Source of the DNA: Gracilinanus agilis
Lineage: Eukaryota
DNA length: 64,000 nt
NCBI RefSeq assembly: GCF_016433145.1
Contig: NC_058130.1
Coordinates: 84,838,545-84,902,544 of the forward strand
Reading direction: 5' to 3'
The position numbers were made by a program, and so were the translations under genes. Under the pieces are notes generated by a model. It saw nothing but the letters and a program-made list of their open reading frames with translations. It did not search any database and had not been told where the DNA came from. Shown here piece by piece: positions 5,873 to 64,000 of this stretch. Every line of letters starts with the position of its first letter. The stretch's first letter is position 1.

Positions 5873-7058
5873 CCTCAGATTCCCTGTGGAAATAGTTCCC
5901 AGCTGCACCCTACCTCCCTACCCCCCGCCAGTGGCAGAGCTTTCTGCTGTTTTTTTAAACCTTTGCTGAGCTGCTGCCTCCCACTTTTTCCCCTGATCTG
6001 TGCATTTTCCCTCCCAGGAGTCCTTCACATGCCTTCCCCACCCTCTCCACCCTTGCACTGGGCCCTCAGCCCCCTGCTGCCTCCCGGTGCCTTCCACGTG
6101 CTTTTTCCCGTTCCCTCAACTGACTTCTATTCTTTACCTCTGTGATTGTGTAAAACTACACATTTTGTTTGTTTGTTTTTCTTCCTACATGTGCAATACA
6201 GCATTTGATTTTTTTCTTTTCTTTCAATTTTTACATTTGAGGCACGTCACTAGCATTAAATAGACTCTTGACTGTTTTGATTTTTGCAATAAGAATAAGC
6301 TAAGATGTCCATTTGCCTAGCATATAAATTTATACTCAAAAAGCATTGGACTATAGAAACCTGCCAATAGTTATTTAATTATTATGAGACTTTTGCTCGA
6401 TGATTATGTCTAATCCAAGGAGAATTGGACCACAAAGGAGCACAGAGTTTTTGACCTGCAAAGTGGAAAATAAGCACATAAAGGAAAAAGACCAAACTAA
6501 TCCTATAAGGATTAATGACATTCTACGCAAAGACTTGATCCTGTGTGAGACTCGAGGTTGAGACCCTTAGCATATGTTAAGACGTAGGACTTTCTTGTAC
6601 CTCACTCAATATCAAGAACTCGACATCAATTATTCTGGCTCCATTATCTCTGAAAATGAAGAAAAGCATTGCACCAGGAAATGCCATTTCCCATTTGTCT
6701 CGAGATCTAGTCTCCTTTTTCCATTTCTTTCATGATGTGACAACTTACTGTAGTCCAGGCTGCTAAATTGGGTTAGTGAGTGATTGTTGTTGCAAAGCTT
6801 ATGGGACATGGATTGCTACAGGAACCTGCTTTGATTTGTGAATTTTTTCCTTTTTCTTGTTCCTAGAATTTTTTCCTTTCACATTTTTTAATACCCTATA
6901 TTTTCCTCAGAGGTTATTTTTTTTCTTTTTTCTTTTTTTCCTTTTTATTTTTCTTTGGACTCTTTGATGTTTTGAGAATTGATTCATATACCTTATGCCT
7001 TGACCATGTATTCCTGTGTGATTCCCATGTGTATCCCTGTATTTTCCTCAGGGGGGAA

Positions 7059-7441
7059 TGTAAAGTTGTTCTCCTCTAGGGGACTATGTTATTTCTGTGA
7101 ATTTGGACTTGAATTTGACCCTAATTTAGAACAGAAGACTACCTCCCAGAATCTAGAAGACACCATGAAGATTCCTGCAGAGACCACACACTGCACAAAA
7201 GATCCAGAGTGAATTTCAAGACATGGCGAATTTGAACTTTGTGGGGGTTGAATGTATTTATTTTGAATGGACACTTTATACCAGAAAGGGGACTGCCCCC
7301 TAAATGGCTTTTGTCAATGCACTGAACATTGGTTTTGTTCTTTCTCCATTTTATTTCCCTTTTATCTCTGAATTATTGTAAACTTTAATTTGATTATGTT
7401 TTCATGATCCATTGGGGAGACTTGTCTCCCAAAGGATTACA
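7059..7441 (+). mobile_element. Second, unrelated LTR-like segment inside the non-autonomous element
   Basis: Preceded by its own PPT (AGGGGGGAA 7050-7058), starts TGTAAAGTTG, ends TTACA, and is directly followed by the PPT of the true 3' LTR. Confidence 0.6.
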
Positions 7442-7713
7442 GGGGGGAATGTAAAGTTGAAAAGACCTTGTACCTCTTTAAACTACATTACCCAAACTCC
7501 CTTTCATCATACCCATAATTCCTTAAGCCTTTTCCTATTGGTTGTGGGTTTTGCGGGAGGTTTTGATATGGTTGTTGTGGGCATGGTGACGGGGCTTTTT
7601 GAAGAGAAGGCGGTGTGGTAAAGGGTGAGTTGGGACTCTTTCCCTGCGCTTTTAATAAAATCCATATAGATATCATACTTTGGAGGCATTGAATATTAAT
7701 TTAAAAACTTACA

Positions 7714-8536
7714 CCCAGCACAAATTTTTAATCACACTGAGGAATACAAATCTCTAAGCCTTTACATCACATCTCTCCCAGTTCCAAGCAATCTTACTAA
7801 CAAACAAGAACTTAACTTTCCACAGATGCAAGACCATTAACCCAGCAACTCTTATCCCTGAGTTACCATTAGAAGGGGATAGCCTGGGGCAGCTGGGTAG
7901 CTCAGTGGAGTGAGAGTCAGGCCTAGAGACAGGAGGTCCTAGGTTCAAACCCGGCCTCAGCCACTTCCCAGCTGTGTGACCCTGGGCAAGTCACTTGACC
8001 CCCATTGCCCACCCTTACCAATCTTCCACCTATGAGACAATACACCGAAGTACAAGGGCTTAAAAAAAAAAAAAAAAAGAAGGGGATAGCCTTCACAATT
8101 GAGATCATGCAGAAGACCAGAGAGATATCAGACATACTCATGGTCCAAGCAGACCTCACACTCTTCTGTGATGGCTCGAATTACCAACTTGGTGGGCAGA
8201 AATTTACAGGAGCCACAGTTTCAACTCAGAATGAAACCATATGGTTTTCAGCACTTGGGCCAAACATCTCAGCTCAAGGGGCAGAAATAATAGCTTTAAC
8301 ACGGGCACTCCATATTACTGAAGGCAAAGCTGTGAACATTTTTACAGACTCAAAATATGCTTTTGGTGTTATACATGCATCAGGGGAAATCTGGAAAAAT
8401 AGAGGTTTCGTGACTTTAAATGGGAAAGCAATAGCATATGGGAAACTAATCAATGAGTTATTTCAAGCCATACAATTACCATCCAAACTTTTTGTGATGC
8501 ACAGCCAAGCACATCAAAAAATCATGGAGCCAGTAT
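7714..8536 (+). pseudogene. ERV connection domain and RNase H remnant
   Basis: Removing the LTR insert restores ...ELRLYSQHKFLITLRNTNL...CKTINPATLIPELP. RNase H motifs LFCDGSN, SAQGAEIIALTRAL, VNIFTDSKYAFGVIH are present. Confidence 0.9.
7886..8077 (+). mobile_element. Young marsupial SINE (SINE1_Mdo-like)
   Basis: GGGGCAGCTGGGTAGCTCAGTGG head, poly(A) tail, 15-bp TSD agaaggggatagcct (7871-7885, 8078-8092). Confidence 0.93.
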
Positions 8537-8544
8537 AGTTAGGC

Positions 8545-8736
8545 CAGTGATTCCCAAAGTGGGCACAGCACCCCCTGGTGGGTGCTGCAGCGATCCAGGG
8601 GAGCAGTGATGGCCACAGGTGCATTTATCTTTCCTTTTAATTGCTATTAAAATTCTAAAAATTTAATTTCCAGGGGGCTAAGTAATATTTTTTTCTGGAA
8701 AGGGGGCAGTAGGCCAAAAAAGTTTGGGAACCACTG
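8545..8736. mobile_element. hAT-Charlie type MITE, copy 1
   Basis: TIRs CAGTGATTCCCAAAGT / AGTTTGGGAACCACTG; 8-bp TSD agttaggc with central TA. Confidence 0.9.
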
Positions 8737-8744
8737 AGTTAGGC

Positions 8745-10155
8745 AATTACCACATGCACATCAGTGCAAAATTTGCAGCTAGGTTTGGACCTAAGCAAAT
8801 ATTCCACTATCTTTAGTAGACAAAGATCAGTTTCAAGAAACTTACTCACAAAAGGAAGTGAAATATTGGCAAGAAAATTTTGGAGCCAATCTAGTAAATG
8901 GAGTGTGGATGTCCATCTCGGGAAAACCATTCTTGCCAAAATTACTGCACCACACAGCTTGTACAGCAAAGAGTTCTTGGGATGATAGACATAATTCAAA
9001 AAAGTTGGATCGGCCTTGGCATAACAATAGAAGCCAAAAGAGTATGTGACAATTACAGAGTCTCCCTGCAATTCAATCAAGGCCTAAGAAAAACAAAAGC
9101 TCATGGGGGAAAACCACTGGCATACACACCCTTCGAATGTCTACAAATAGACTATGTCACAGTGCCAAAATATCAGGGTTTTTGATACATACTCCTGATA
9201 GTGGACAAACTAACCAAATGGCCAGAAGCATTTCCAGCCAGACAGAATAATGCAGCATTTGTAGCCAAAGTCCTACTGAGAGAGATAATTCCCAGATTCT
9301 CTATTCCTGCAGTTATCTCATCTGACTCTGGGAGTCACTTTGCAAACTCCATTCTTAAGCAAGTCTAACAAGTGTTAGGAATCAAGAGACATCTAAGTTC
9401 CATTTATAGACCTCAGTCGTCTGTGGCCGTGGAACGTACCAACCAGAGTCTCAAAACCATGATCGGGAAGCTATGCACAGAGAACCATCTTAAATGGCCA
9501 GATGTCTTGCCAATGGCACTTTTCCACCTGAGAAGCCAACCACATAATACAACTCATTTATCACCTTTTGATATTATATGGGAAACTTCCATAGGTTGGG
9601 AAAGCACCTTAAGACACCAATTACCTATCATACCTTGGGATAGAGTGCAAAATCTATGAATATATCACTCTATTGAAAGAAAGACTGGGGAAAAAAAAGA
9701 AAGAAAGACTGGAAGAATTGCAGAAATTATCATTGATCCAACCAAGAGTTCCACTAGATTTAGCTTACATGATTTCAAACCTGGAGACAATTTATATTAG
9801 AAACTTCACAAGAAGATCAGTGTTAGAACCAAAATGGTACAGTCCTCATGAAATAATATTTGTAACACCTACAGCTGTAAAAATCAAAGGGAAAGATGCA
9901 CGGTATTATTACTCATATATAAAATCGTCCTCCAAACCAAGACCTCATTCAAGAATCCAACAAGAAACAGAGCCTGAGAACATAGAATCACACTTAAAAC
10001 CAAAGCCTCAGACACAAAAAGACCAAGACACAGATGCAGAGATAAGTGAAACACAAGATCACACAGACAGCCAAGACAAAGACCAACATCAGGAGCAAGA
10101 CACTCAAAGCATTGAATTAGACTACACAAATGCCTCAAAAACACATGAAAATTAG
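8745..10155 (+). pseudogene. ERV integrase remnant with Q/D/T-rich tail
   Basis: PFECLQIDYVTVP, IVDKLTKWPEAFP, PAVISSDSGSHF, YRPQSSVAVERTNQSLK, KWPDVLPMALFHLR, EPKWYSPHEIIFVTPTAVKIKG (GPY/F-like); several stops and frameshifts. Confidence 0.9.
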
Positions 10156-20409: not shown

Positions 20410-22600
20410 TAGTCCCAAGGTAATTCCTGAATCTGCCTATGGCCTATTATTCTGACTCTCCTTAAGCCTTCGCCCTCTTAAGCCTGTTCTTTTCCCTCAT
20501 TTTGACCTCCAGTCCCTTCAGCCCTCTGCACTTTCTCAGACCATTACTCCTTTTCTGACTTCAATTTCCTCCCTTCACAGTCTTAACTGTATAGTTGACC
20601 AGTTCAACTCCACACTGTCCTTCGTAATTCCTCAAGCCCTTATCCTGTTGCCATACCCCAACCTTAAATTGTTTCCTTATGCTTCTCTTCCATTCCTCAT
20701 CATGGACTGCTGAATAAAATTGAAGGGAGCCATACAACAACCATAATAACCAGGGCCACTATAGAGTTGTTATCTAGCCCCAATTGAGTCCTCACTGAAG
20801 CAAAGTTCATCCTTTTCATTCAAAGTGTTTCCCTGTCCTACTACCAAAAGAAAGGCTACTCCAAACTTTCTGTCCATTCTTAAATTTTCTCATACACTCC
20901 TTCCTCACCCCACTTATCTCACTTAAACTCCTCACCTCTTAAACTTTACTAAAGAAATTAAGGCCATAATCTCCCTCTTCTCACCTTCTCTTTTTCTCCA
21001 GATCCAATTACAATAGCCTCCATTCATTTCTCCTTGACTCCATTTTCTGATAATGATGTGGCACTTCTAACCAATGTGACCTTTTTTCCATTGCCTCCAG
21101 TCTTTTTCCAGCAGACTATCCCTACTCTCATCCATTCTCAGACTCTAGTCTTCACTTTCTCCCTCTCTTTGCTTTGTTCCCCTACTGCCTTCACTTGTGC
21201 CTAAGTCTCCTTAGTCATCAGAAAACCATCACTGGACCTTAGGGGTTTCCCCTATATCTCTCCTCTTTTTCCCAGCCAAAGTCCTGGAACAAAGTATCTA
21301 TGCTTGTTACCTCTCCTAGTTACGCTCCTCTCCTTCATTCGTCACCTCTTGGCAATCCAGCTTCTCATTTCGCTTCCCTGAAACTTCTCTCCCCAAAATG
21401 ACCAATGATCCCTTAACTTCCAGTTCCACTGGTCTTTTTTCAGGCATTATCCTGCTCTACCTCTCTGCAGTTTTTGACCATATTGACCACCCTCTCTTCC
21501 TGAACACTTTTTGTTGTTTGGGTTTTTGTGGCACTACTCTTTCCTATCTCTCCTATCTAGTTATCATCCATATCACCCATTCTATATGTGAGTATACCCA
21601 GGCTCTGGCCCAGACCTTCTCTCTACATTTTTGATCTTTGTGACTTTATCAGCTGCACTGGGTTTAATTCTCTCTGTGCAAATATCTCCAAGATTCAGAT
21701 GCCAGCCCTAGTTTCATTCTTGAGCTTTAAGAACATATGAGACTGGATTCCTATGGACCATTCAAACCCAAAATATCCAGGAGAGAATTCATTTTCTTCC
21801 CTCTCCACCTGCCCTCTTTCAGATTTGCCTATTTTTGCTGAGGGTACCACTATTCTTGAGTCTCCCAGGTTCACATCCTCTTTATCCTCCAATCCTCATT
21901 CTCCCTCACCCTATCTATTTAACTAGTTCTCAAATCTTGCAGTTTCTCCCTCAATAATACCTCTTCTCATGTGAACCATTCTCCCTGCTCACACACCTAT
22001 AACTTTAATTCAGGCCTTATTCATCTCTCACTGAAACCATTGCAATAGCCACATAGCTGAGCTCCTTGCCTCAGGGTTGCCCCAGCTCCAGTCTAGTCTC
22101 TCTCTATCACTGCCAAAGGAATATTCCTTCAGCTCAGATGTAAACCCCACACACTACTCTGGTTTTAAAGCTCTTCATAGCCTAGTCCTAACCTCTTTTT
22201 CCAGGTTCCTTATACCTTCCTTCTCTTCCTTCACTCTGCAATCTAGCCAAATTGACCTTCTCACCAATTCCTACACAAAATTCCTTCCCTCTTCTCTCTG
22301 CCTTTGCACTGACTGTGCTCCATTCCTGGAATACCCTCAGTCCTCACCTCATCTCTGCCTCCTAAAATCCCTCATTTCCTTCAGAACTCATCTCAAACAC
22401 TACTGTCTATCTTTCTGGGTCCTCCAACTTCTGGTGTCTTCCCTCCTTCTCCAACTACTTTTGTTTTGAACTACCTTGTATTCGTTGTGTGTTTATTCTG
22501 AATAGTCTTAAATATGGACTTGTGTCTGTCCCCATAGACTTTAAGATCCTTTATATTGGGGACTTTCATTTTTTAAAATTCATATCCCCTGAGCCTGGCC
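20410..22600 (+). mobile_element. L2 LINE remnant
   Basis: Pyrimidine-rich L2 ORF2 remnant including ctctctgcagtttttgaccatattgaccac (LSAxFDxxDH RT motif). Confidence 0.75.
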
Positions 22601-22751
22601 CATAGTAGGCACTTATCAATGCTTATTGCTTAATTGATTGATTGTAAGTTCTTATATTTAAGGCTGACAATCAGGTCCAGCCCCCTTGTTTTATATATAA
22701 GGCAAAGCCAACCTCATTCAGAACTAAATACTGGGGAGGTGGGCTGGGGTA

Positions 22752-22910
22752 GAATAGCTAGGTGACTCAGTGGATTGAGAGCCAGGCCTAGAGACAAGAG
22801 GTCCTTGGTTCAAATATGACCTCAGATACTTCCTAGCTACTTGACCCTCGGCAAGTCATTTAACCCCCACAGTATTCATTCTAAGACAAAAAGGTTAAAA
22901 AAAAAAAAAA
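22752..22910 (+). mobile_element. Marsupial SINE (repeated at 27721-27879)
   Basis: gctaggtgactcagtggattgagagcc head and A-tail. Confidence 0.8.
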
Positions 22911-23060
22911 GGAAATGCTGATTGATTTACGTACCCAGGGTCACACAAGTAATAAGCATCAGAGCCAAGATTTAAACCTGATCCTGAAACTGCCAAAGTC
23001 CCTTGGTCCCACTGTAGTGCAGCCATGAGTTCCTGACTATATCTTTGTTTTTAATTCCAG

Positions 23061-23776
23061 GGGATTCTGGATCTTCAAGTTTGAGACAAAAGGAAAGCCA
23101 TGGACATGACCTCCAAAACCAGAACTGGTATAGACCCTTACCATTCCGCTGCAATGCATGCAGCAGGGGCTTCACCCACAAATCTCAGCTTGCCAATCAC
23201 ATTAGAGTCCATAGACCCAAGAAGCACTTTCAGTGCACGGAGTGTGATAAGAACTTTGCCCAAAAGTCTCGACTGCTCAGGCACCAGTGCCTGCACACAG
23301 GTGAGAGGCCCTTTCAGTGCCCCAAGTGTGACAAGAGCTTCCACCAGAAGGGGCATCTGCTCAAACACCTGCCCCTTCACACAGGGGAAAGGCCCTTCCG
23401 TTGCCCTGACTGTGACAAAAGCTTCCGAGTAAAGGGTGACATGAAGGCCCACCAGCGCCGGCATAGGGAGGAAAAGCCATTTTCCTGTAGTGAATGTGGT
23501 AAAGGCTTCACCACGCATCATTATCTTACTGATCACATCAGAATCCACACAGGTGAAAGGCCTTTCCAATGCCCAGAGTGTGGCAAGAGCTTCCGAGTAA
23601 AGGGCGACATGAAGGCCCACCAGCGAAGACATATCAAGCCCCGGTCATTCTGCTGCAGTGAATGTGATGAGAAATTCCACAAGCAATCTGAACTCACAGA
23701 CCACATTAAGGTGCACACAAAGAAACAGCACTACAGGGCTTTGCTGTTTGGACTGATGGATCTTGATTGGAGTTGA
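23061..23776 (+). CDS. Gene A terminal exon, 7 C2H2 zinc fingers plus LFGLMDLDWS tail
   Basis: Acceptor tttgtttttaattccag, phase 1; 7 CX2CX12HX3H fingers with TGERP-type linkers; stop at 23776. Confidence 0.95.
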
Positions 23777-25366
23777 GACCAAATCTATAGCATACAACAT
23801 GTGATTATCAAAGTCAAAGAGTTGAAAAGCATTTTAAACACTATCTAACCCTATTACATTCTTGACAAATGACCATTCAGCTTCTGCTGGACTATCTCTA
23901 GTAACAGGATCCTTAGTACCTTATAAAGCAGGTCATTCCATTCTGGGGTAGCTCTAATTGTTGAAAAGTATTTCCTTAGCTAGAACCAGAATCAGGCTCC
24001 CTATAACTTCACCTCTTAGTCATAGTTCTCCTCTTTGACCAAGCAGAAGTTTAGTAACCACATCACAACTGTTGAATATTATCTGTCCATTAAAGTGAAT
24101 GATGGAACTGGGTAATGCTGTTTTTTGCTTATTCTCTTTCATTAACAAGTTATAACAATTAAGTAATGATATTTATCTTGGTTCATAAAGTGTCTCCAAA
24201 GAGGCTACTGATATGTCATAGTGCTGAAATTCTCTCTCTGCATCACTCTTTTATTACTCTCTAAAAGCCAAAGAATTTCTTCCTAAAAGTCTAAGGCACA
24301 TCCCTTCATAAGTCTAAATATGAGAAATTGTTAGGCTGAGAGAAATGAAAATCTTTCTCCTGCTACTCCCAAACCTGAATAGGTAAGGCTGGTGATCATC
24401 TGAAGAACCTGAAAACTTGTTGAATGTAATCCTGAATGACTGCAACTGCTGTTGAAGCAATGGTTGGCGGGATGGTTTTCCTGCAGAGACACAATAAATG
24501 GAACATCCCTGAGTCTGAGTCTATCTTTCAGGATGAATATTACATCTCGCCCAATTTGAGGCAATGTCTAGAGACATTGAGGGGAGATGTGATAGAAATA
24601 GAAAAAGTAATGTTGCTCTCATCCATATGGTATATATACATAGGAACACTTAAAAAGAAACAAATCCCAGGTGGAAGTAGCAAGAACACTCTCCATACAA
24701 AAGCTCTGAGAACAGCCTGTAAAAAGAGTAAGAGAAAAACTTGGTGAAATATACCTGGAAAGGCTTCATGAAGGATTTTGAGCTAAGTTTGAAAGAAAGT
24801 AGGAACTATTTCAGGCAGTATAATTGCCATAGGGAAGTTTAACCACACCAAATTTGTTTGGAGAAAAGTGATGGCAGAGAGATTATTGAAAAATAAGTTT
24901 TTTGCAGTGACAGGAAAGTACAGAAATTCTGGTTTAGGGACTTAGGCTTAAGAGAGAAATTGTGATATGGTGGGAAAAAACATAGGAATTGAAGAAAGAG
25001 AGGTATGAATTTGGATCACTATCCAGAAATATATCAGCTTTTTCTGACTATGAACATTTAATTTATCTTAATTTCTACCTCCTCGATTTAATTCTAACAA
25101 ATGGAGATAACAATACCTATAGACCTACTTATCAGGTTCAAACTAGACGAAGCTTGTAGAACACTGAACATGTCAAAAGCATTAGATGAATGTCAAGTAC
25201 TATAAAGAATACTTGTGGAAACACATCCCAACTCCTTGTCTGGTTTCTTCTTGTTCACTTGTAGCCAAGGGCCCCTTAGGGCATAGTAGGAAGGAATAGT
25301 ATAACCTAATTTCACCAAGGTTCTTAAAAAAAAAACTGTCCCTGCTCAAACATTTGGGTAAATATT

Positions 25367-25660
25367 ATTGTTGAGTTGTTTTTCATTCATATCAGATTCT
25401 CCATGATCCCATTTGAGTTTTTCTTGGCAAAAATACTGGAGTGGTTTGTCATTTCCTTCTCCAGCTCATTTCACAGATGAGGAAATTGAGGCTAACAGCA
25501 TTAAGTGACTTGTCCAAGGTCACATAGGTAATAAATGTCTGAGGCTGGATTTGAACTCAAGTCTGCCAATCTGGAAGAGAATGTGAGGCTGATGACTTTA
25601 TGCAACTCTACCTCAAATACAATTTATGCAAGAATCAAAAGATATCACCTGTGTCTTTTG
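25367..25660 (+). mobile_element. MAR1-like (RTE-related) marsupial SINE (repeated at ~30336-30630)
   Basis: ttttcttggcaaaaatactggagtggtttgtcatttccttctccagctcattt...gatgaggaaattgagg signature. Confidence 0.7.
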
Positions 25661-26073
25661 GTTGTCTTTGAATGGCATGTCCTTGATTCCCTCCATTAGG
25701 ATCAATGATGGAAGTCAAACTTAACCAGACCTAACTTGATTTCTCCATCTAGATCAACAATCAGGCCTGTTATTCCTCCTCTAACCCCACCCCCATCATC
25801 ATGAGGAGATCAAGGAGAGACTGAAATATATTAGTTCATCTCATTAGATAATCACCAATGTGTTAGTTAAAATCACTTGGGGTTCTATTTGGAAATATTG
25901 AGCCTCAAGATATGTAGTATCTTACAAACTTCCTGTGGACATGTGGGGAACTTTGAAACTGCATTCCCCGTGATCCAGTGGGTTTCTGGTTTCTGACAAC
26001 AGGAACCAACGTATTAAATTCGAAGGGCCGGCTTGAGACGGTCTCTTTTGGTGGTAACTTTGAAGAGCTTTTA

Positions 26074-26166: not shown

Positions 26167-26586
26167 NNNNNNNNNNNNNNNNNNNNNNNNNNNNNNNNNN
26201 NNNNNNNNNNNNNNNNNNNNNNNNNNNNNNNNNNNNNNNNNNNNNNNNNNNNNNNNNNNNNNNNNNNNNNNNNNNNNNNNNNNNNNNNNNNNNNNNNNNN
26301 NNNNNNNNNNNNNNNNNNNNNNNNNNNNNNNNNNNNNNNNNNNNNNNNNNNNNNNNNNNNNNNNNNNNNNNNNNNNNNNNNNNNNNNNNNNNNNNNNNNN
26401 NNNNNNNNNNNNNNNNNNNNNNNNNNNNNNNNNNNNNNNNNNNNNNNNNNNNNNNNNNNNNNNNNNNNNNNNNNNNNNNNNNNNNNNNNNNNNNNNNNNN
26501 NNNNNNNNNNNNNNNNNNNNNNNNNNNNNNNNNNNNNNNNNNNNNNNNNNNNNNNNNNNNNNNNNNNNNNNNNNNNNNNNNNNNNT
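26167..26586. other. Assembly gap (420 N)
   Basis: Run of N. Confidence 1.
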
Positions 26587-29500
26587 TCTCTCTACATTTT
26601 TGATCTTTGTGACTTTATCAGCTGCACTGGGTTTAATTCTCTCTGTGCAAATATCTCCAAGATTCAGATGCCAGCCCTAGTTTCATTCTTGAGCTTTAAG
26701 AACATATGAGACTGGATTCCTATGGACCATTCAAACCCAAAATATCCAGGAGAGAATTCATTTTCTTCCCTCTCCACCTGCCCTCTTTCAGATTTGCCTA
26801 TTTTTGCTGAGGGTACCACTATTCTTGAGTCTCCCAGGTTCACATCCTCTTTATCCTCCAATCCTCATTCTCCCTCACCCTATCTATTTAACTAGTTCTC
26901 AAATCTTGCAGTTTCTCCCTCAATAATACCTCTTCTCATGTGAACCATTCTCCCTGCTCACACACCTATAACTTTAATTCAGGCCTTATTCATCTCTCAC
27001 TGAAACCATTGCAATAGCCACATAGCTGAGCTCCTTGCCTCAGGGTTGCCCCAGCTCCAGTCTAGTCTCTCTCTATCACTGCCAAAGGAATATTCCTTCA
27101 GCTCAGATGTAAACCCCACACACTACTCTGGTTTTAAAGCTCTTCATAGCCTAGTCCTAACCTCTTTTTCCAGGTTCCTTATACCTTCCTTCTCTTCCTT
27201 CACTCTGCAATCTAGCCAAATTGACCTTCTCACCAATTCCTACACAAAATTCCTTCCCTCTTCTCTCTGCCTTTGCACTGACTGTGCTCCATTCCTGGAA
27301 TACCCTCAGTCCTCACCTCATCTCTGCCTCCTAAAATCCCTCATTTCCTTCAGAACTCATCTCAAACACTACTGTCTATCTTTCTGGGTCCTCCAACTTC
27401 TGGTGTCTTCCCTCCTTCTCCAACTACTTTTGTTTTGAACTACCTTGTATTCGTTGTGTGTTTATTCTGAATAGTCTTAAATATGGACTTGTGTCTGTCC
27501 CCATAGACTTTAAGATCCTTTATATTGGGGACTTTCATTTTTTAAAATTCATATCCCCTGAGCCTGGCCCATAGTAGGCACTTATCAATGCTTATTGCTT
27601 AATTGATTGATTGTAAGTTCTTATATTTAAGGCTGACAATCAGGTCCAGCCCCCTTGTTTTATATATAAGGCAAAGCCAACCTCATTCAGAACTAAATAC
27701 TGGGGAGGTGGGCTGGGGTAGAATAGCTAGGTGACTCAGTGGATTGAGAGCCAGGCCTAGAGACAAGAGGTCCTTGGTTCAAATATGACCTCAGATACTT
27801 CCTAGCTACTTGACCCTCGGCAAGTCATTTAACCCCCACAGTATTCATTCTAAGACAAAAAGGTTAAAAAAAAAAAAAAGGAAATGCTGATTGATTTACG
27901 TACCCAGGGTCACACAAGTAATAAGCATCAGAGCCAAGATTTAAACCTGATCCTGAAACTGCCAAAGTCCCTTGGTCCCACTGTAGTGCAGCCATGAGTT
28001 CCTGACTATATCTTTGTTTTTAATTCCAGGGGATTCTGGATCTTCAAGTTTGAGACAAAAGGAAAGCCATGGACATGACCTCCAAAACCAGAACTGGTAT
28101 AGACCCTTACCATTCCGCTGCAATGCATGCAGCAGGGGCTTCACCCACAAATCTCAGCTTGCCAATCACATTAGAGTCCATAGACCCAAGAAGCACTTTC
28201 AGTGCACGGAGTGTGATAAGAACTTTGCCCAAAAGTCTCGACTGCTCAGGCACCAGTGCCTGCACACAGGTGAGAGGCCCTTTCAGTGCCCCAAGTGTGA
28301 CAAGAGCTTCCACCAGAAGGGGCATCTGCTAAAACACCTGCCCCTTCACACAGGGGAAAGGCCCTTCCGTTGCCCTGACTGTGACAAAAGCTTCCGAGTA
28401 AAGGGTGACATGAAGGCCCACCAGCGCCGGCATAGGGAGGAAAAGCCATTTTCCTGTAGTGAATGTGGTAAAGGCTTCACCACGCATCATTATCTTACTG
28501 ATCACATCAGAATCCACACAGGTGAAAGGCCTTTCCAATGCCCAGAGTGTGGCAAGAGCTTCCGAGTAAAGGGCGACATGAAGGCCCACCAGCGAAGACA
28601 TATCAAGCCCCGGTCATTCTGCTGCAGTGAATGTGATGAGAAATTCCACAAGCAATCTGAACTCACAGACCACATTAAGGTGCACACAAAGAAACAGCAC
28701 TACAGGGCTTTGCTGTTTGGACTGATGGATCTTGATTGGAGTTGAGACCAAATCTATAGCATACAACATGTGATTATCAAAGTCAAAGAGTTGAAAAGCA
28801 TTTCAAACACTATCTAACCCTATTACATTCTTGACAAATGACCATTCAGCTTCTGCTGGACTATCTCTAGTAACAGGATCCTTAGTACCTTATAAAGCAG
28901 GTCATTCCATTCTGGGGTAGCTCTAATTGTTGAAAAGTATTTCCTTAGCTAGAACCAGAATCAGGCTCCCTATAACTTCACCTCTTAGTCATAGTTCTCC
29001 TCTTTGACCAAGCAGAAGTTTAGTAACCACATCACAACTGTTGAATATTATCTGTCCATTAAAGTGAATGATGGAACTGGGTAATGCTGTTTTTTGCTTA
29101 TTCTCTTTCATTAACAAGTTATAACAATTAAGTAATGATATTTATCTTGGTTCATAAAGTGTCTCCAAAGAGGCTACTGATATGTCATAGTGCTGAAATT
29201 CTCTCTCTGCATCACTCTTTTATTACTCTCTAAAAGCCAAAGAATTTCTTCCTAAAAGTCTAAGGCACATCCCTTCATAAGTCTAAATATGAGAAATTGT
29301 TAGGCTGAGAGAAATGAAAATCTTTCTCCTGCTACTCCCAAACCTGAATAGGTAAGGCTGGTGATCATCTGAAGAACCTGAAAACTTGTTGAATGTAATC
29401 CTGAATGACTGCAACTGCTGTTGAAGCAATGGTTGGCGGGATGGTTTTCCTGCAGAGACACAATAAATGGAACATCCCTGAGTCTGAGTCTATCTTTCAG

Positions 29501-31042
29501 GATGAATATTACATCTCGCCCAATTTGAGGCAATGTCTAGAGACATTGAGGGGAGATGTGATAGAAATAGAAAAAGTAATGTTGCTCTCATCCATATGTT
29601 ATATATACATAGGAACACTTAAAAAGAAACAAATCCCAGGTGGAAGTAGCAAGAACACTCTCCATACAAAAGCTCTGAGAACAGCCTGTAAAAAGAGTAA
29701 GAGAAAAACTTGGTGAAATATACCTGGAAAGGCTTCATGAAGGATTTTGAGCTAAGTTTGAAAGAAAGTAGGAACTATTTCAGGCAGTATAATTGCCATA
29801 GGGAAGTTTAACCACACCAAATTTGTTTGGAGAAAAGTGATGGCAGAGAGATTATTGAAAAATAAGTTTTTTGCAGTGACAGGAAAGTACAGAAATTCTG
29901 GTTTAGGGACTTAGGCTTAAGAGAGAAATTGTGATATGGTGGGAAAAAACATAGGAATTGAAGAAAGAGAGGTATGAATTTGGATCACTACCCAGAAATA
30001 TATCAGCTTTTTCTGACTATGAACATTTAATTTATCTTAATTTCTACCTCCTCGATTTAATTCTAACAAATGGAGATAACAATACCTATAGACCTACTTA
30101 TCAGGTTCAAACTAGACGAAGCTTGTAGAACACTGAACATGTCAAAAGCATTAGATGAATGTCAAGTACTATAAAGAATACTTGTGGAAACACATCCCAA
30201 CTCCTTGTCTGGTTTCTTCTTGTTCACTTGTAGCCAAGGGCCCCTTAGGGCATAGTAGGAAGGAATAGTATAACCTAATTTCACCAAGGTTCTTAAAAAA
30301 AAAACTGTCCCTGCTCAAACATTTGGGTAAATATTATTGTTGAGTTGTTTTTCATTCATATCAGATTCTCCATGATCCCATTTGAGTTTTTCTTGGCAAA
30401 AATACTGGAGTGGTTTGTCATTTCCTTCTCCAGCTCATTTCACAGATGAGGAAATTGAGGCTAACAGCATTAAGTGACTTGTCCAAGGTCACATAGGTAA
30501 TAAATGTCTGAGGCTGGATTTGAACTCAAGTCTGCCAATCTGGAAGAGAATGTGAGGCTGATGACTTTATGCAACTCTACCTCAAATACAATTTATGCAA
30601 GAATCAAAAGATATCACCTGTGTCTTTTGGTTGTCTTTGAATGGCATGTCCTTGATTCCCTCCATTAGGATCAATGATGGAAGTCAAACTTAACCAGACC
30701 TAACTTGATTTCTCCATCTAGATCAACAATCAGGCCTGTTATTCCTCCTCTAACCCCACCCCCATCATCATGAGGAGATCAAGGAGAGACTGAAATATAT
30801 TAGTTCATCTCATTAGATAATCACCAATGTGTTAGTTAAAATCACTTGGGGTTCTATTTGGAAATATTGAGCCTCAAGATATGTAGTATCTTACAAACTT
30901 CCTGTGGACATGTGGGGAACTTTGAAACTGCATTCCCCGTGATCCAGTGGGTTTCTGGTTTCTGACAACAGGAACCAACGTATTAAATTCGAAGGGCCGG
31001 CTTGAGACGGTCTCTTTTGGTGGTAACTTTGAAGAGCTTTTA
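26587..31042 (+). repeat. Copy 2 of ~4.45-kb duplication
   Basis: Begins exactly at the end of gap 1 and ends exactly at the start of gap 2. Confidence 0.95.
28030..28745 (+). CDS. Duplicate of gene A ZF exon (same protein); probably an assembly artefact
   Basis: Identical translation, one synonymous CTC>CTA change seen; no upstream KRAB exons of its own. Confidence 0.4.
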
Positions 31043-55559: not shown

Positions 55560-56670
55560 CTCTAGTGTATGATTAAATTGAGAGAGTTCAGAATCTGATA
55601 AAGTAGGGAAGATGTGGCTATTTATTCTCTATTTTCATACATCTTTTTCTACTCATGGTTTTTACCTTGGTAACAGCATTTTCTGTGTTCAAGTGCCCAT
55701 CTACTTATTTGTAAAAGTGCTTTAGAAAGTCCAGTTATGTTATTCCTTGGGGATTCCTTGAGTTTATTTCTTAGGCTAGCATTTTTCCTTAAAGGATAAC
55801 AGCCCTCAAAATCTTGTTTCTGTCAGTAATCCATTTTGGGGCTGTTTGGAAATAAGTAGATGAACATGATCTTCAAACACCCTTGTGGAGAACTTAGACT
55901 AGAGAAAATGTACCAGGTACTCAATACTTCAGTTCTCTAAGCATTTTTTAAATGCCTTCTTTGTGCCTGCATTAGACAATGAATACACAGTTTTCTCAAC
56001 CAGAATAATTTCTGCTCTTCCTTGAGTCCTTTGAGAGAATCTATATTCATAGAGTCAAGGCTTATTAACAACTACATGTACTCCTTTATGATCTCATTGT
56101 TTTCTATCCTTTATCTAGGTGTGGCTACATATTTGAACTTAGTCTCGCTAGTCTGGTTGTTTTTCGTTTAGTGAAGATTAAAATCCCACTTTGAGTGATA
56201 CCTCATTGTAATAAATTGCTGACCTTACAATATATTGAAATAATCTCAAAGGCTAGGTCAGCTGAGCACATGTTCTAGAAGATTCTACAAACCTAGAAAG
56301 GCTTTGAGTAATATACTGATCTGGTGACAGATTATTGACTTGAAAGCCATGTAGCTAACTTCTGAGAGACGTCTCTCCAGAAGGTTCATTATCAGGGGAT
56401 AAATGTTGAATGACCTCAACAACTAATGAAAGTGTTCATCAGGGAATAAAAGGATTGTTTTGTGTTAAGAGAGAGAGAAACTCATGCCAATAAAATCAAA
56501 GATCTTTTGGAGAAATTAAGAAAGACATCTTGAGACAGAGTAATAACTACCCTGAAAGTGAGGCTTAGAGAGAAAAGATTTTTTTTAGTTAACCCAGGTG
56601 AAAGGCTGAAATGAAAGCCTTATAAAGCACTTAGACTATTTAATGACTGGATTTTTGTTTTTAATTCCAG

Positions 56671-58301
56671 AGGATGAGGGGTCTATGAATTCACAAGAGG
56701 AAAAGCACTATTTTTATGATTCTCAAAACCAGGACTTACCTGAATCATTATCAGGAAAAAGAAGAGAAGCTTTCTTTACACTTGGTCAACAAGGCTCTTA
56801 TTTAAGGAGCCCATATAACCAAGATTCACAGTCTTTGGCTCCAAAAGCCCACAACATCAAGAAATCCAACTCATATAAGAGAGACTTGAACCACAAAACT
56901 GAGGGATCCCTTTCCTTCCAGAAAAATTTCAAGAGCCACAAGAAAGCACAAGAGGACCTGTCCAAAAGAAAGGGAGCATTTGTATTGGACCTTACCCAGA
57001 AGACAAAGCTCCCGGAACACAACAGATTGCATAAGAATAAGAAGCCCTTCTCCTGCCTCAAATGCAGCAAGAGCTTCGCCAGGAAGGACGTACTTAAGGT
57101 CCACCAGCGCCTACACAACAGTGAGAGGCCCTTCCAGTGCCCCCAGTGTGACACCAGTTTCCGCCTAAAGAGGCAACTACTCAGCCACCAGCGCCTACAT
57201 ATAGGCGATAGGCCCTTCCAGTGCCCCCAGTGTGACAGCAGTTTCCATCTAAAGGATGTTCTAAAAGCCCATCAGTGCACACATAGTGGAGAATGGCCTT
57301 TCTCTTGCAGTGAATGTGGCAAAGGCTTCATCAGACAGCTCCACCTCACAGAGCACCTCCGAATGCATACGGGAGAGAAGCCTTTCCGGTGCCCCCAGTG
57401 TGACAAGAGCTTCCGCCTAAAGGGCACCCTCAAGGTCCACCAGTATGTGCACAGCAGAGATCGGCCATTCTCTTGTGAAAAAGGTGGCAAAGGCTTCACC
57501 ACACAGTTCCACCTCACAGAGCACCTCCGAATGCATACGGGAGAGAAGCCTTTCCGGTGCCCCCAGTGTGACAAGAGCTTCCGCCTAAAGGGCACCCTCA
57601 AGGTCCACCAGTATGTGCACAGCAGAGATCGGCCATTCTCTTGTGAAAAAGGTGGCAAAGGCTTCACCACACAGTTCCACCTCACAGAGCACCTCCGAAT
57701 GCATACGGGAGAGAAGCCTTTCCGGTGCCCCCAGTGTGACAAGAGCTTCCGCCTAAAGGGCACCCTCAAGGTCCACCAGTATGTGCACAGCAGAGATCGG
57801 CCATTCTCTTGTGAGAAATGTGGCAAAGGCTTCACCACACAGTTCCACCTTACAGAGCACCTCCGAATGCATACAGGAGAGAAGCCTTTCCGGTGCCCAC
57901 AGTGTGACAAGAGCTTCCGCCTAAAGGGCACCCTCAGGGTCCACCAGTGTGTGCACAGAGATCGGCCATTCTCTTGTGAGGAATGTGGCAAAGGCTTCAC
58001 TCACCAACATAAATTAACTGAGCACTTCAGAGTACACAGTGGTGAGAAACCCTTTCAGTGCCCTGAATGTGACACCAGCTTTCGCTTGAAGAGTGGCTTG
58101 AATAACCATCAGCGCTTACACCACAAAGAGAGGCCATTCTCCTGCAGTGATTGTGGCAAAGGCTTCATTCATAAGTCTAGGCTCACTACCCACATCAGAG
58201 TGCACAAAAGGGAGAAGCCCCATGGTGACCTGAATAACTCTGATAAAAAAACAAAACCATGCCAGCTCTTTAGACTAACAGAGGAAGACTGGAGTTCCTA
58301 G
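56671..58301 (+). CDS. ZNF786: Gene C terminal exon: spacer, 14 C2H2 fingers (2 with Cys>Gly), QLFRLTEEDWSS tail
   Basis: Acceptor tttgtttttaattccag, phase 1, open to 58301; the last finger and tail resemble human ZNF786 as recalled (GKGFIYKSKLAEHIRVH...SQLFAMIEADWS). Confidence 0.93.
57341..57960 (+). repeat. 168-bp coding minisatellite (two-finger unit, ~3.7 copies)
   Basis: Units start at 57341, 57509, 57677 and 57845 and are nearly identical. Confidence 0.95.
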
Positions 58302-58381
58302 ATCCTGGAACTTGAGGACCGTAGAAATAATTTACCAATACTTTCCACTTATTTTACAAATGAGAAAGCTTGGTGTCTTCT

Positions 58382-58557
58382 TACCTGGTTGATCCTGGCA
58401 GTAGCATATGCTTGTCTCAGAGATTAAGCCATGCATGTCTAAGTACACATGGCCAGTTCAGTGAAACTGCAAATGGCTCATTAAATCGGTTATGGTTCCT
58501 TTGGTAGCTCACTCGCTCCTACTTGGATAATTGTGGTAATTCTAGAGCTAATACATG
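58382..58557 (+). pseudogene. 18S rRNA pseudogene fragment, nt 1 to ~176
   Basis: TACCTGGTTGATCCTG...GAGCTAATACATG starts at the mature 18S 5' end; about a dozen changes versus mammalian 18S, many CpG transitions. Confidence 0.95.
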
Positions 58558-59836
58558 GGTCTCTAATCCAAATTAAAGAATCTGAAACACAGAAAAGGCA
58601 GTTTAATAGGAAAAAACCTTAGTAGCAGTCAGACGGTAGCCATCTTGAATTAGCTCCACCCTTAATTACAGTTCCTCTATAGGAACAAAAGACAGAACAA
58701 GAACTATACTTATAGACAGAGACACGTTGGGAAAGACATTTACAAGCATGGAATGGGTAAAAGAACAAATGCTATTTAATTTGATCAGCAGTTCACTGTT
58801 GGTATACTCTTTCTGGTCTGTGATATGTAGGTTGTGGGTGGAAACGATTCCATTTTACTTATTGCAGGTGGTGCACTTTATAGACACATGGATGAAAATA
58901 GAGCTAGAGAGAGTGTTTGTGTATACCCCAACAGTGATGGCAGCTTTAGCATTCTTCCTGCAATTTTACTGGACAATGCAAAAACCAAAAGAGCTTAAAA
59001 GAATGGAAAATGGCCTAACAACTTATCTTCTCGGGACATAGAAAATCTGTTGGAGGAATTATTTACACTATCACAAGCACAACAGTTCATAAAAGAGACC
59101 AGAGACTACAATAGACTTACATCACAGCCAGAGGTTTACAATGATACTGAATTATCTAATCTTGATAACACTGCATACTTAGAAAGATGTGGGGAGGATA
59201 TTACTGAAGCGATGTCCAAGTTTGCAAAAAGGCCACATATCTGGGGTCAATTTGAGGCATTAAAGCAAAACATAGGAGAACATCCTAGTACCTTTCCAGA
59301 TAGGGTACTCAAAACTGGAGAATTAATTTTGGTGTTCAGGGACCTAGCCGAGACCAATCTGTAGCACATCCACAGACACATTGTAAAAGTCAGCAGTTTA
59401 CCCATAAAATCATATTTCCAAATGCATTGTCCTGGGTGGGAAGAGCTATCCTTAGAATTGAATTGAGAAAAACCACTACATATGTTTGTTCTGGGTCACT
59501 GGGGATAATAGACAAAGATAAACTGAAAAGACCAAGGATGAAACAATTATTGAACTCAAAAAACAATTAAAGGAAACAAAGCCAACAATCAAAGAGAAAT
59601 AAATAGAAGAAATTAAAAACTTGGCAACATTGCAAGCTAGGAATAACATCACTAGGACCCAGTATCAGCCAAGACAAAGTACTGATACAAGAAAATGTTT
59701 TTTATGTGGGAAACCAGGCCATCTTATAAGAAATTGTTATTATAAGCAACAAATCAATTTTAATAACACCAATAATAACAATAATAGGAGAAGAAACTAC
59801 ACAAATACATACGCCAACTCCAAGTACAGCCATGCA
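58558..59836 (+). pseudogene. ERV gag fragment (CA to NC), related to the gag at 1247-3060
   Basis: LEELFTLSQAQQF..., SYFQMHCPGWEEL, canonical knuckle CFLCGKPGHLIRNC followed by an N-rich tract; lacks its own 5' and 3' ends. Confidence 0.85.
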
Positions 59837-60301
59837 GACTCTAGAAAGAGCTATCAAGCTGTCAATCCTTTCCACTTCTGGGCTGGGTGAGGTTTCCCAT
59901 GTTGAGTCAAATTAAGCCACAGGCTCCACTCCTGGTGGTGGCCTTCCATCAATTCCTTTTAAGTTTCAGCCTTGCAATCATACTTCCCCCAGAACCCAAA
60001 GACTTTGGTTTCCTGGAAGCTGCCCAGGAGGTCATGGGAATAACACCTCCAGATTGCTAGTTGGCATCATTTATGGTCGGAACTACAATGGTATCTGGAT
60101 CATCTTCGAACCTCTGACTTTCATTCTTGAATAATGAAAACATTCTTGACAAATGCTTTCACTCTGGTCCATCTTGCGCCTGTCCAAGAATTTCACCTCT
60201 AGCAGCACAATACGAATGCACCCTAGCCATCCCTCTTAATCATGGCCTCAGTTCCAAAAGCCAACAAAATAGAACCAGGGTCCTATTCCATTACTCCTAG
60301 C
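59837..60301 (-). pseudogene. 18S rRNA pseudogene fragment, internal (approx. nt 860-1320), antisense
   Basis: Minus strand reads GCTAGGAGTAATGGAATAGGAC...GAGGTGAAATTCTTGGAC...GGCTTAATTTGACTCAACA..GGAAACCTCACC...GATAGCTCTTTCT, matching conserved 18S sequence with CpG decay. Confidence 0.93.
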
Positions 60302-60577
60302 AGGCTTACCACTCTTTAAGGGATGTGTTCTGGAAACCCCCTTGACTGAAAAGATATGGGCCCACGCTACTCTCACCATCCCTCCTTACTTGGGAGTCCC
60401 TTGGGGGTGTAGCACGTGAGGAGGTTCCCCAAAATGGATGTGCCAGGGTTAAGCCGGGTTTTTGAGCACAAGCCTCCCCCTATCCCAAACTGACTGTCCA
60501 CCAATATGGAGTTTGTGATCCTTCCACATGCCACCCACAAGATGCTGCCTCCCTCCTTGAAAACACTCTTCCAACTC

Positions 60578-61266
60578 TGTCTTAAAATAACTCAACAGGG
60601 GTTTATTCAGGAACAAGGCATTCAGGTATAAAGAAAAGGATTTCAGGAAAGAGGGTGAGGATGAAACTTAATAATCTATTCTCAGTCTCTCCCAGGGTTA
60701 AACAGTAATTAGATTTCTTCTGTAACTTTCAATCTTAGTTAACTGTTTCAGGACCCCAGTAAAACTCCTCTCCTAAAAGGTTACAAATGGCTAAAGAGGG
60801 AAAGGGAATCTCTAAACTCAACCCAGGCTTAGTTAGCCCCCAAGGGCCAGCTCCCTCCCACCAGAGTCTCTGGCTCCTTGGCAAACAGGAGAAGCTGCAA
60901 TATTTGTTTTCCAAAATTTTGACTGAAGATGTAGAATCAATTACGCTGGCTATAGTAACAGAAGGTCTGGCAAAATCTCAGATTTAGGCTTTTTGAGATG
61001 TTCAGGGTCCCAAGGAAACACTGCCTCCCACCTCCTTGTCCTTCCCAAAAGGTCCAGAGAACAGTGAGTGACCGTTGTCTTTTTTTAATTCCCAGCATTC
61101 TCAGCCTCAGCCCAACTGCCACCTCTCCTGGGTCCTCAGAATCCCATCCAAATGCAGTCTTGCTTGGTCCTTTTAGCTTAGCAGTCTGTTGCACAGGAGA
61201 ACTAAGTATCTACCCTAAAGTTGCATAGCTAAGTAAGTAGCAAATGCAAAACTGGAACCTAAAACT
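60578..61266 (-). mobile_element. LTR (antisense) with leader-like sequence at 60302-60577
   Basis: Plus strand starts TGTC, with tttatt (minus-strand AATAAA) at ~60602; interrupted at 61267 by another LTR. Confidence 0.55.
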
Positions 61267-61764
61267 TGTGATAATTTAATCTGTAACTCTCTTTTTAAAA
61301 GGAAAGTTTCATTTTGAATTTGAAAATCCATTTCAGTCTCACTCCCACCCTTTGAATTAAGAACAAGCCCTGAAGCTTAGCTGTATAAGGAGGATACATG
61401 CTCAGTGTAAGAAGCTAGAAGCTTCTTGGCTTTCTGGGATCCCAGAAGACACTTGCCTCTTGTCCCACGTAACTCCTTGTCTGAAAGACCAAACACTGAC
61501 CTGGACTGAGGTCAAGTTTGTCTGATCAAGGAGAACCAGAAAAGGGGGAAAGGGATAATAAGTTATGGCTTAAGGAAGCTCTCCAAAGTGTTCTGGCCTA
61601 GAAGTAGGACTGAATAGAGACTCAATGGAGCAGCTGAACTAGGGAAGAAAGTGTGTGACTTGGCCATGTGGCTATGTACATGCCTTTGCTTTCTCCAACT
61701 CACTTTTTCCTATTTAATAAATAACTATCAATTAGTATACATTTGCCAGAGAATTTTAATCATA
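61267..61764 (+). mobile_element. 5' LTR of an ERV1-like element
   Basis: TGTGA start, AATAAA near 61716, followed by a PBS-like tggtaaacatgaag at 61772. Confidence 0.65.
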
Positions 61765-64000
61765 GCAATTCTGGTAAACATGAAGTAAGAGTCTGAACTC
61801 TTCCTTTTTCTTGCCTTTTTTAAAGTTTTCTTTTCACATAAGCATAACTTACATGTGGTATCCCCAAAAAAGTATATATATTTATATATGTATAAAGTTC
61901 TAGGTTTCTGAGAAACTGAAATTATTGAGGAGAAACTTTGAGTGAGGTTACTTATTTTTGTGTGTGCATTTGCCAATTATTTGTTTTGGAATTTTTTGTT
62001 GTTGGGGAATGAAGCAAAAATATAAGTTAGAAGAGCAGCAAAGTAAGCAAGATAATTAGATAATAATAACTGAAATTAGAAAAGTGCATTAAAGATATAG
62101 GAGTAAGAGAGGTGACCTTCTGTTTTCTCTGTGCCTTTCTTTAATCATTTAAAAAAAGAAAAAACACAAATTAAGCTGGGCTTGGGAAGTTCAACAGAAC
62201 CACATTACCTCTACAGAGAGGTCTAAGGTAGAGACTTATTAGACAGTAACCAACAGTGTCTAATTTGGTTTTTATTGTTAACAGTTTCTAACCTTTTTGT
62301 GCGTGTTCTTGGTTTAGGATGTTTTTTGTGTGAAAATAGGAAATATACACAGTAAGAACCCAAGGATCTCTTTTTACATAGGCTGCTCATCTCTTGGGAA
62401 CAAGGGCTACTACCAAAAAAGCCAGAAATGACAAAAAACCAGGGCATTACCCTTTGTAAGAAATAATTTAAGACTATGACTACACCAGCTAGGGACCCCT
62501 TTTGATCCTGTTTTGGGTCTTTTGGCTTTAAAACATTAAGAGTTAAAATTAGCTATTGGAAATAAAACTCCCAAAGAACTATATTACTGATACATTTTGA
62601 CTGTGCTCCTTGATAAATCTACAAAGATTCAACTAAGTTTAAGTAGCCAAATTTTTAATAATTCTCCACTGCTTTTTCACATCCTTCTCATCTTATAACT
62701 GTTGTTCCCTCTCTGACCTCTCCCCCATTATCTCAGCCTGTTCCCCTTTCTATCTTTTTGGGGACCCTCTTTGCTCCTTCTCCTCTGGCCTCTCTCCCAT
62801 TGCCTTTTTTTAGGGACCCTCCCCAAAGTTTCTTCTGTCCCTCCCTTCCCTACATATTCTTTTCATCCACACTCTCTATTTCTTTTCACCATCCTGGGCA
62901 CTCCTCCACCCCACCCCCTGAGGCCTTTGCCATTTCCATCCCCCACCCCTTTCCAGGTGTATTGAGTCCTCTTTGACCACATCCTTTCATTCAGCTTCTG
63001 CTTCAGCTTCCCTGCCCACTCTCTGCACTCAGCTAACCAAGGGGAAGTCCTCACCCAGAGATGTCTCAGAATGAAGGAGGTTCATTTCCTCCTCATCTCA
63101 CCTGTCTCCACACAGATTTAAGACTCAGTAGTAGAAAATGAATCCCCTAAAGGCATTTTTGCTCTAAGGGAGGTTATCACACAGGACCTTAGAGGCAACA
63201 TGATGAGGTTAAGAAATTCCATCCCATTCTTTCCCACTAATCTCAGCATGTGGCACCAAGATATGCTTAGCTTCAACTGTGAGCCAATCATTGTTCTGAG
63301 ACAGTTTGAGGCCATATGGGGAAGTTTAAATGCAAACTGGGGTGATATAATAATGTAATGCATGCCTTACTGAGGGAGAAAGGCAATTTTTAAGACCACC
63401 AATAACTCAGAATGAGGATGGGAAACTGGCCATTACAGAACCCACAATGGGACTCCCATAATCCTAAGGACTACATGAAGTTACACCTCTGCTAAAAAAG
63501 AATGGGACTGCTCTGCTTGCCCAGAAAAATTAGCAAAAATGTGAATTTTAATTTGAAAAAAAAAAAAACCCAACTAGTTTTATGATCCAGTATACATGAC
63601 AGCTAAAAGATATGCAGTTTTCAAACCCTCTAAATCCAGTGATGCTTGTATCATAGGCACCATTGTGTGTACCATTCTTTTCCCAAAATAAAAATATTTT
63701 CACAAGCATTGTCCAGACTGGGCTATTATGAATTGTAATAGTTAAGAGTGGTTGCCAATTTATAATAATTAAATTTATGAGGCTGCTAGTAGCCAGGGGA
63801 AACGATTTATGATAGTACAAGAAACAGAAAGGGGTCTTAGAGTCTTAAGCATGGTGACTTTTTCTTCCTGGACCCTTATTCTTTACTCCCATTTATTCTA
63901 GTGTGTTCTCCCCCTAGAACAAGGCCTCATAAAACTCTTAATTTGGAAACACTTATTATGATTGTGTCTTGGACATTGGAACCTCCAAACCTGTCTTAGT
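61765..64000 (+). mobile_element. ERV1 internal region with decayed gag
   Basis: FALREVITQ...IPFFPTNLSMW...NANWGDI at ~63.15-63.36 kb resembles gamma-type CA (PF..sDL.NWK...PTW.D); proline-rich p12-like tract at 62.7-63.0 kb. Confidence 0.65.

Follow-up and report, generated by a model that had tools for sequence, protein, structure and literature searches.

The described systems that come closest to the locus analyzed here share parts of its anatomy, and one of them, the tailless retropseudogenes, was reportedly described by Schmitz in 2004. According to portions of the account by Noll et al. 2015 (PMC5322556), tailless retropseudogenes are found in therians, arise by internal priming from complementarity to the target (2-18 nt), and have TSDs. 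In the same portions, only two 18S copies are given among human tailless elements, both of them 5'-truncated, and the L1 and RTE systems are both described as probably active in marsupials. Endonuclease-independent L1 insertions are another kind, and in the sections of Sen et al. 2007 (PMC1920257) that bear on this, deletions accompany 18 of 21 of them. In a twin-primed 5' inversion, as outlined in parts of PMC2912911, two segments of one RNA are joined directly, with the 5' segment inverted, and both lie inside TSDs. Finally, one inversion at the primary reverse transcription end in a cancer genome (PD0270a, Fig. 4C of 10.1101/2024.12.14.628481, as presented in part of that preprint) holds genomic DNA as well as part of the insert.

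We analyzed a window of 64,000 nt from the opossum Gracilinanus agilis (contig NC_058130.1), which lies in a cluster of KRAB zinc-finger genes with many ERV remnants. Near its right end, a broken ERV gag stands between two 18S rRNA pieces that face each other. The order is an 18S piece on the plus strand (58382-58557), ERV sequence on the plus strand (58558-59836), an 18S piece on the minus strand (59837 to about 60302), and then leader- and LTR-like DNA on the minus strand. There is no second copy of this composite in the 64-kb window, and titles and abstract starts in the open-access literature yielded no description of an 18S/ERV-gag composite. The locus is probably a lone accident.

The composite lies directly behind a host gene. 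The last exon of a ZNF425-like KRAB zinc-finger gene (56610-58301, plus strand) was recognized by its open reading frame, Pfam hits and protein alignments: 489 of 490 aligned residues are identical to the Gracilinanus agilis protein P0017, and 421 of 487 to P0016, the orthologue from Monodelphis domestica. Both the exon's product and P0016 end in EEDWSS, so the stop codon is native. The next 80 nt (58302-58381), judging by their sequence, are probably a remnant of the 3' UTR; they gave no clear alignment to the UTRs of paralogous ZNF genes and revealed no pre-insertion state. The composite took the place of the 3' UTR of a gene whose frame is still open. On the plus strand from 58450 to 61300, the first AATAAA occurs at 59598, within gag, and ATTAAA is present at 58480 and 58572. 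As far as such motifs can tell, the ZNF mRNA may end within the foreign DNA (in the region 58302-59603), and it could include sense, and perhaps antisense, 18S sequence. Words sampled from 58240-61300 were present in four sequencing runs from one study (shares of 0.71, 0.27, 0.23 and 0.20), which says nothing about the junctions, and there were no RNA sequencing runs among the matches listed. The run with the highest share may come from the animal sample behind the assembly. The exon also includes four finger-pair repeats of 168 nt each, at 97% identity (57316-58000). Two Gracilinanus ZNF proteins, P0015 and P0018, are near-identical to this gene and both stop inside the finger-pair array. The gene may be duplicated, or it may be split in the assembly.

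We identified the 18S pieces with Rfam and by aligning the window to 96 animal 18S loci from metagenomes. These references were found with a loose pattern, are mostly of invertebrate type, and do not include the opossum's own 18S (a vertebrate-type 18S pattern had no match in viral or metagenome contigs). We number 18S positions on one of these loci, L044. Position 1 of the Rfam model SSU_rRNA_eukarya falls on window position 58382, on the plus strand, and 63 of the 67 left-block matches end at 58557, which bears out the initial annotation's claim of a sense piece that begins at nucleotide 1. This left piece corresponds to 18S 1 to about 172 and carries no 5' spacer. The antisense piece that was also claimed is there: it is a decayed copy of about 838-1295 that spans 59837-60302 on the minus strand, with the right edge placed at 60297 or 60305. 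The left block stops at 172 and the right block begins at 838, which leaves a gap of about 665 nt in the 18S sequence.

The left piece starts exactly at position 1 of 18S, without spacer sequence, which suggests that RNA was the template. The flank 5' of 58382 is also unlike the sequence upstream of 18S in the reference loci, but rDNA spacers are not conserved, so the telling point is the exact start and not the dissimilar flank. If rDNA itself had been captured at a break, either by end joining or by ectopic synthesis that began at the homology to gag described below, strand invasion could have exploited the same 48-nt match, and the absence of L1 hallmarks would be expected. However, the copy ends precisely at the mature 5' end, where copying of rDNA would have no reason to stop. 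We regard DNA as the source as highly improbable.

Both pieces have decayed. In the right block, changes affect 17 of 42 CpG bases and, outside CpG, 14 of 325 conserved bases; the left block, where tested, is changed at 4 of 60 non-CpG sites. The two non-CpG rates (4/60 vs. 14/325) do not differ significantly (P = 0.50, Fisher exact test). Both pieces are old pseudogene sequence of like age. Using the neutral rates that we assume for mammals, that age is roughly 10-25 million years; as the references are invertebrate, this is an upper limit. The CpG decay of 59837-60297 is biased by strand, with 13 C>T and 3 G>A changes on the 18S sense strand (P = 0.02). At 59908-59901, the copy retains the T of the reference in a GACTCAAC motif. 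We take this T to be modified in mature 18S, in a way that presumably hinders reverse transcriptase. The retained base may hint that the template was a nuclear precursor, insofar as one base and this assumption can.

An error in the assembly, with real but separate pieces joined or flipped, has something in its favor, as the window contains gaps, and 27-37 kb away there is a 4457-nt duplicate (21617-26073 and 26586-31042, 99.9% identical, with a ZNF exon in each copy) on the two sides of one gap. That duplicate is probably an assembly artefact. At the composite itself, though, both 18S pieces are diverged pseudogene sequence rather than collapsed rDNA, the longest exact words that any junction region shares with the rest of the window are 11-14 nt, and there is no inverted repeat at the inversion breakpoints. 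Nor would an assembler join sequences where there happens to be an imperfect complementarity of 48 nt, or precisely at position 1 of 18S. We find a misassembled composite hard to believe.

The sequence between the 18S pieces consists of a broken gag (58748-59836, plus strand) and the DNA upstream of its ATG (58558-58747, plus strand), which from its position and composition may be the distal part of an ERV leader. This upstream DNA is A-rich like the sense strand of gag (A content of 0.40 vs. 0.38). The gag was delimited by Pfam, protein alignments and an in-frame ATG. Pfam finds a CCHC zinc knuckle (PF00098) at 59690-59737. The capsid part (59026-59457) is 52% identical over 144 amino acids to residues 211-354 of the Monodelphis protein P0001, and 59537-59866 aligns to residues 376-491. 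At the other end, 58847-58984 aligns to residues 29-76 of P0001 (1 of 500 shuffles scored as high), and to P0025 as well; the other eight pairs of frame and protein in this test of the N-terminus were at chance level. There is an in-frame ATG at 58748, where the homologues begin, and the N-terminus that follows is hydrophobic. The ATG and the N-terminal alignment place 58558-58747 upstream of gag, so that the left break falls within 5' untranslated sequence. About 130 internal codons are gone near 58985-59025 (residues ~77-210 of P0001 are unmatched), about 30 final codons are absent, and there are stops and frameshifts inside. The initial annotation had described a gag lacking both ends: the sequence is gag-like and its 3' end is indeed absent, but the start is kept.

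A second gag in the window (2572-2150) is 51% identical to the broken gag over 141 amino acids. With a profile built from both, we matched 14 proteins among 1.84 billion. The best matches, P0001 and P0002 of Monodelphis, hit Gag_p30 (PF02093); the capsid piece of the broken gag has no Pfam hit by itself, so the assignment as capsid goes through these two proteins. Judged by this Gag_p30 capsid homology and the CCHC knuckle, the middle part of the composite is the gag of a gamma-like ERV. Other searches added little. A word-based protein search with a 121-amino-acid piece of gag confirmed 0 of 252 candidates, 0 of 8 viral contigs tested held a relative, and the two matches among solved structures were at chance level. 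The P0001 search brought up a single additional relative from 7996 candidates, and nothing close to the broken gag.

The Monodelphis group of P0001 (LOC103106438) and P0026 (LOC103101729) resembles the broken gag in its hydrophobic N-terminus, Gag_p30-like capsid and single CCHC knuckle, and the capsid part of the broken gag is 49-52% identical to this group. The frames of P0001 and P0026 are open (520 and 533 amino acids), while the gag in the window is broken, and it is too distant for orthology. P0001 and P0026 are 56% identical to each other and have hydrophobic N-termini where a recognizable matrix domain would be expected. They are either young ERVs or co-opted gag genes, and we found no paper that names them in its title or at the start of its abstract.

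The junction between gag and the antisense 18S piece has an unusual feature. The match to 18S does not end with the copy: past a skip of 12 nt beyond the start of the copy, it runs another 46-48 nt into gag. This gag 3' end (59788-59835, plus strand) is complementary to 18S 1309-1352 and may have been the primer. Its alignment score of 39 was reached by 0 of 3000 local shuffles (best 37), by 0 of 1000 shuffles against the whole 18S, and by none of the control windows from the broken gag (0/197, best 29) or the second gag (0/217, best 33). The predicted duplex has an energy of -42.4 kcal/mol, computed with RNA parameters as a proxy, and none of the 235 and 155 controls were as low (best -38.9 and -27.2).

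Is this segment simply more of the 18S copy? We disfavor this. It shares 9 of 15 residues with the second gag and, at the DNA level, 27 of 45 nt, and its differences from the second gag fall mostly at third codon positions (3, 4 and 11 at positions 1, 2 and 3, or 11 of 18 at the third). At non-CpG sites, it departs from conserved 18S more than the copy does (7/38 vs. 14/325, P = 0.003). Also, 8 of the 11 bases that differ from 18S agree with the second gag. One oddity concerns the frame that crosses the junction. It spells SH-x7-QAxN, the pattern of P0001 and P0025, whereas antisense 18S alone would encode QSVN (40/40 loci), and the base that gives the A is not the one present in the 18S loci (46/46). 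The original pairing may have extended to both sides of the 12-nt skip, although one base is weak evidence. An ancient 18S origin of the gag end, held in common with the second ERV, is rejected as well, as the matching segment of that ERV scores 16-18 vs. 39. At the 17 aligned sites where the segment differs from the second gag, it follows 18S at 14, in an alignment that was optimized for 18S. This agreement could reflect selection for a site that pairs, but partial conversion would produce it too, as would error-prone synthesis of a segment derived from 18S. The simplest reading of the junction is that the plus strand of gag, broken at this point, annealed to 18S rRNA and primed a cDNA. If the gag family kept a 3' segment of 50-80 nt that pairs with 18S, priming would have been repeated, and 18S-gag chimeras would form a small family of rRNA-carrying retroelements in opossums; we think this very unlikely.

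On balance we favor, with some confidence, a one-off repair scar, in which the 3' end of gag primed reverse transcription of 18S up to nucleotide 1 and an inversion with a loss of ~665 nt followed. The starting state would be a provirus that lay antisense behind the ZNF gene. A break near the end of gag would have freed a 3' end; this end pairs with 18S 1309-1352 and would have primed synthesis, with 12 nt of the rRNA skipped. A LINE reverse transcriptase, most likely L1 ORF2p acting without its endonuclease, would then have copied about 1.3 kb to nucleotide 1. The end of the cDNA would have been joined to DNA that lies 80 nt past the stop codon of the ZNF gene, and the remaining provirus would have been lost. 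Finally, to judge by the geometry, 58558-60302 would have been inverted, either at a later time or in the same repair, as that end was resected and annealed to itself. The product is decaying and has no means of moving.

When 58558-60302 is reversed, 18S 1-172 is followed by 838-1295, and the LTR, leader, leader and gag stand in order. The ERV parts fall into order because the left break is upstream of the gag ATG, with leader-like DNA on the far side of the block, and the position of that break supports the split of one leader. This scheme is close to one that the initial annotation had offered, in which an 18S retrocopy was joined to a minus-strand ERV and the block was inverted with a deletion. 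The break upstream of the ATG, the equal decay of the 18S pieces and the priming signature speak for it, but its loss of the gag start does not stand. Several points count against our favored explanation: it needs four junctions, as many as its main rival, the compositions of the leader pieces are unlike, 18S copies are so scarce among human tailless elements, and there is no significant homology at the inversion junctions. At the right inversion junction, there is a short match to the 18S sequence that precedes the block, but 188-563 of 2000 shuffles scored as high, as did 62 of 298 sliding windows. Homology at the left inversion junction is at chance level. Both junctions were compared with invertebrate 18S references.

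The main rival is a kind of inside-out twin priming, in which a leader-gag fragment was excised, both of its 3' ends were extended on 18S (the right end from ~1295 to 838, the left end from ~172 to 1), and the fragment was re-joined in inverted orientation. A single event would then explain why the 18S pieces face each other and why the 5' end is exact, along with the priming signature on the right and the equal decay of the two pieces. One RNA has been reported to yield two cDNAs at separate breakpoints (Figure S3C legend of 10.1101/2024.12.14.628481, from the part of that work cited above). However, the left junction carries no priming signature: 794-839 of 1000 shuffles had as much similarity, although this is a weak test, as the region is variable and the references are invertebrate. 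Two simultaneous breaks 1.28 kb apart would also be required, and a gap of ~665 nt would remain between the cDNAs. Of the initial annotation's second proposal, that both 3' ends of gag were extended on 18S, it is thus the right-hand end, with its signature at the gag/18S junction, that the data support. We rate the two-primer event as unlikely, though it deserves to be taken seriously.

The repair scar reading assumes that the LTR, the leader and gag come from a single ERV, and on this point the evidence comes from motifs and position. The LTR-like DNA on the minus strand (60578-61266) has a TG at 60578 (the CA end) and an AATAAA at 60607, 24 nt before that end, and a TGG lies 4 nt past the end, as after another LTR in the window. 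These motifs fit the 3' end of an LTR. No second copy of 60578-61266 is in the window. The leader-like DNA after it (60303-60577, minus strand) showed no canonical primer-binding site and does not significantly resemble the second ERV (24 of 300 shuffles scored as high). Its composition (A 0.25, G 0.31) differs from that of 58558-58747 (A 0.40, G 0.19). At 61266, the minus-strand LTR-like DNA is cut off and abuts another LTR on the plus strand (61267-61762). This plus-strand LTR has TG...CA ends, an AATAAA and its own gag-like sequence at 63122-63492, and it probably inserted into the minus-strand LTR at a later time.

The second ERV of the window (1230-10150) belongs to the same Gag group. 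Its gag is on the minus strand (2935-1690), and frames for reverse transcriptase, RNase H and an integrase-like protein are on the plus strand (4535-5758, 7999-8538 and ~9100-9900), so that the two sets meet head to head near 3595. This geometry could have arisen through another inversion or as a 5'-inverted retrocopy of ERV RNA, or there may be two elements. A small element with LTRs at 5586-5850 and 7449-7713 (95% identical) is nested in its pol.

Instead of a scar, the composite might belong to a multi-copy element derived from an ERV, which captured 18S by template switching in the particle or the cell and then spread. At its left and right junctions, ERV and 18S are joined sense to sense, as copy-choice gives, and pieces of host RNA do enter retroviral DNA via microhomology, as stated in part of PMC4997597. 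The region may also be duplicated, as two Gracilinanus ZNF proteins besides P0017 match our ZNF gene at 268/269 and 235/243 residues. On the other hand, the window holds one copy, its left end is the bare 5' end of 18S with no second LTR or TSD, the join of gag to antisense 18S is not a product of copy-choice, and the 18S copy decays at CpG sites like neutral DNA. The packaged rRNA named in the relevant part of PMC4997597 is 5S, not 18S. We consider a mobile element of this kind quite unlikely.

The locus also lacks the hallmarks of L1 insertion. We compared 58340-58379 to the gag end and obtained a score of 12, which 1274 of 2000 shuffles equalled, so a degenerate TSD at the left flank is rejected. 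The primer end has no TTTT or other T run and there is no oligo(A) at the insertion; with no T run ending the primer strand, the consensus target TT/WAAAAWW is not matched.

If our favored reading holds, this is a germline case in which a long imperfect pairing of DNA with rRNA apparently steered where reverse transcription began at a break. A 5'-complete 18S template of 1.3 kb is rare among tailless retrocopies. The inversion spans both target and new cDNA in the germline, and such inversions are otherwise described from cancer genomes and cell lines (10.1101/2024.12.14.628481, in the portion considered here). A single decayed locus leaves the general picture unchanged. It would carry more weight if the pairing were conserved in the ERV family or if the junctions recurred.

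Like the tailless retropseudogenes, the locus is a 3'-truncated copy from the 5' end of an RNA, without oligo(A), in a therian host: the 18S copy ends at ~1295 of ~1800 nt and adjoins gag. There is complementarity to the target at the truncation point, but it covers ~48 nt with gaps and is offset by 12 nt. Unlike them, the locus has no TSD and no TT/WAAAAWW site, and it is split by an inversion; because of the missing TSD and target site, we set it apart from that class. It also differs from the human tailless 18S cases, as given in that portion of PMC5322556, in its intact 5' end and its span of ~1.3 kb. With endonuclease-independent L1 insertions, it shares the lack of a TSD and of an endonuclease site, 3' truncation, complementarity at the junction and a probable loss of target DNA. 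However, the insert consists entirely of rRNA sequence and contains nothing from L1, and the target deletion is deduced from the reconstruction.

For a twin-primed 5' inversion, the 18S segments would be adjacent, but here they are 1.28 kb apart with their 3' ends facing inward. The initial annotation had noted that this is not the geometry of ordinary twin priming, in agreement with the description in the quoted part of PMC2912911. The L1-induced inversion PD0270a may be comparable: its inverted block consists of genomic DNA plus part of the insert, with deletions, and our locus would fit this geometry if its leader pieces come from one ERV. Our locus differs from it in being germline, in its rRNA template, and in having neither a TSD-like overlap nor significant homology at the inversion junctions. 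The rRNA/LINE-1 chimeras (PMC13174262) and SINE28 (PMC4994717) are also fusions of rRNA to a retroelement, and in the portions of those papers that cover this, twin priming explains the antisense partners. At our locus, the partner is an ERV gag and not L1 (the term "18S" does not appear in the main text of PMC13174262), and, unlike SINE28 as portrayed in part of PMC4994717, the locus shows no sign of multiple copies or a Pol III unit.
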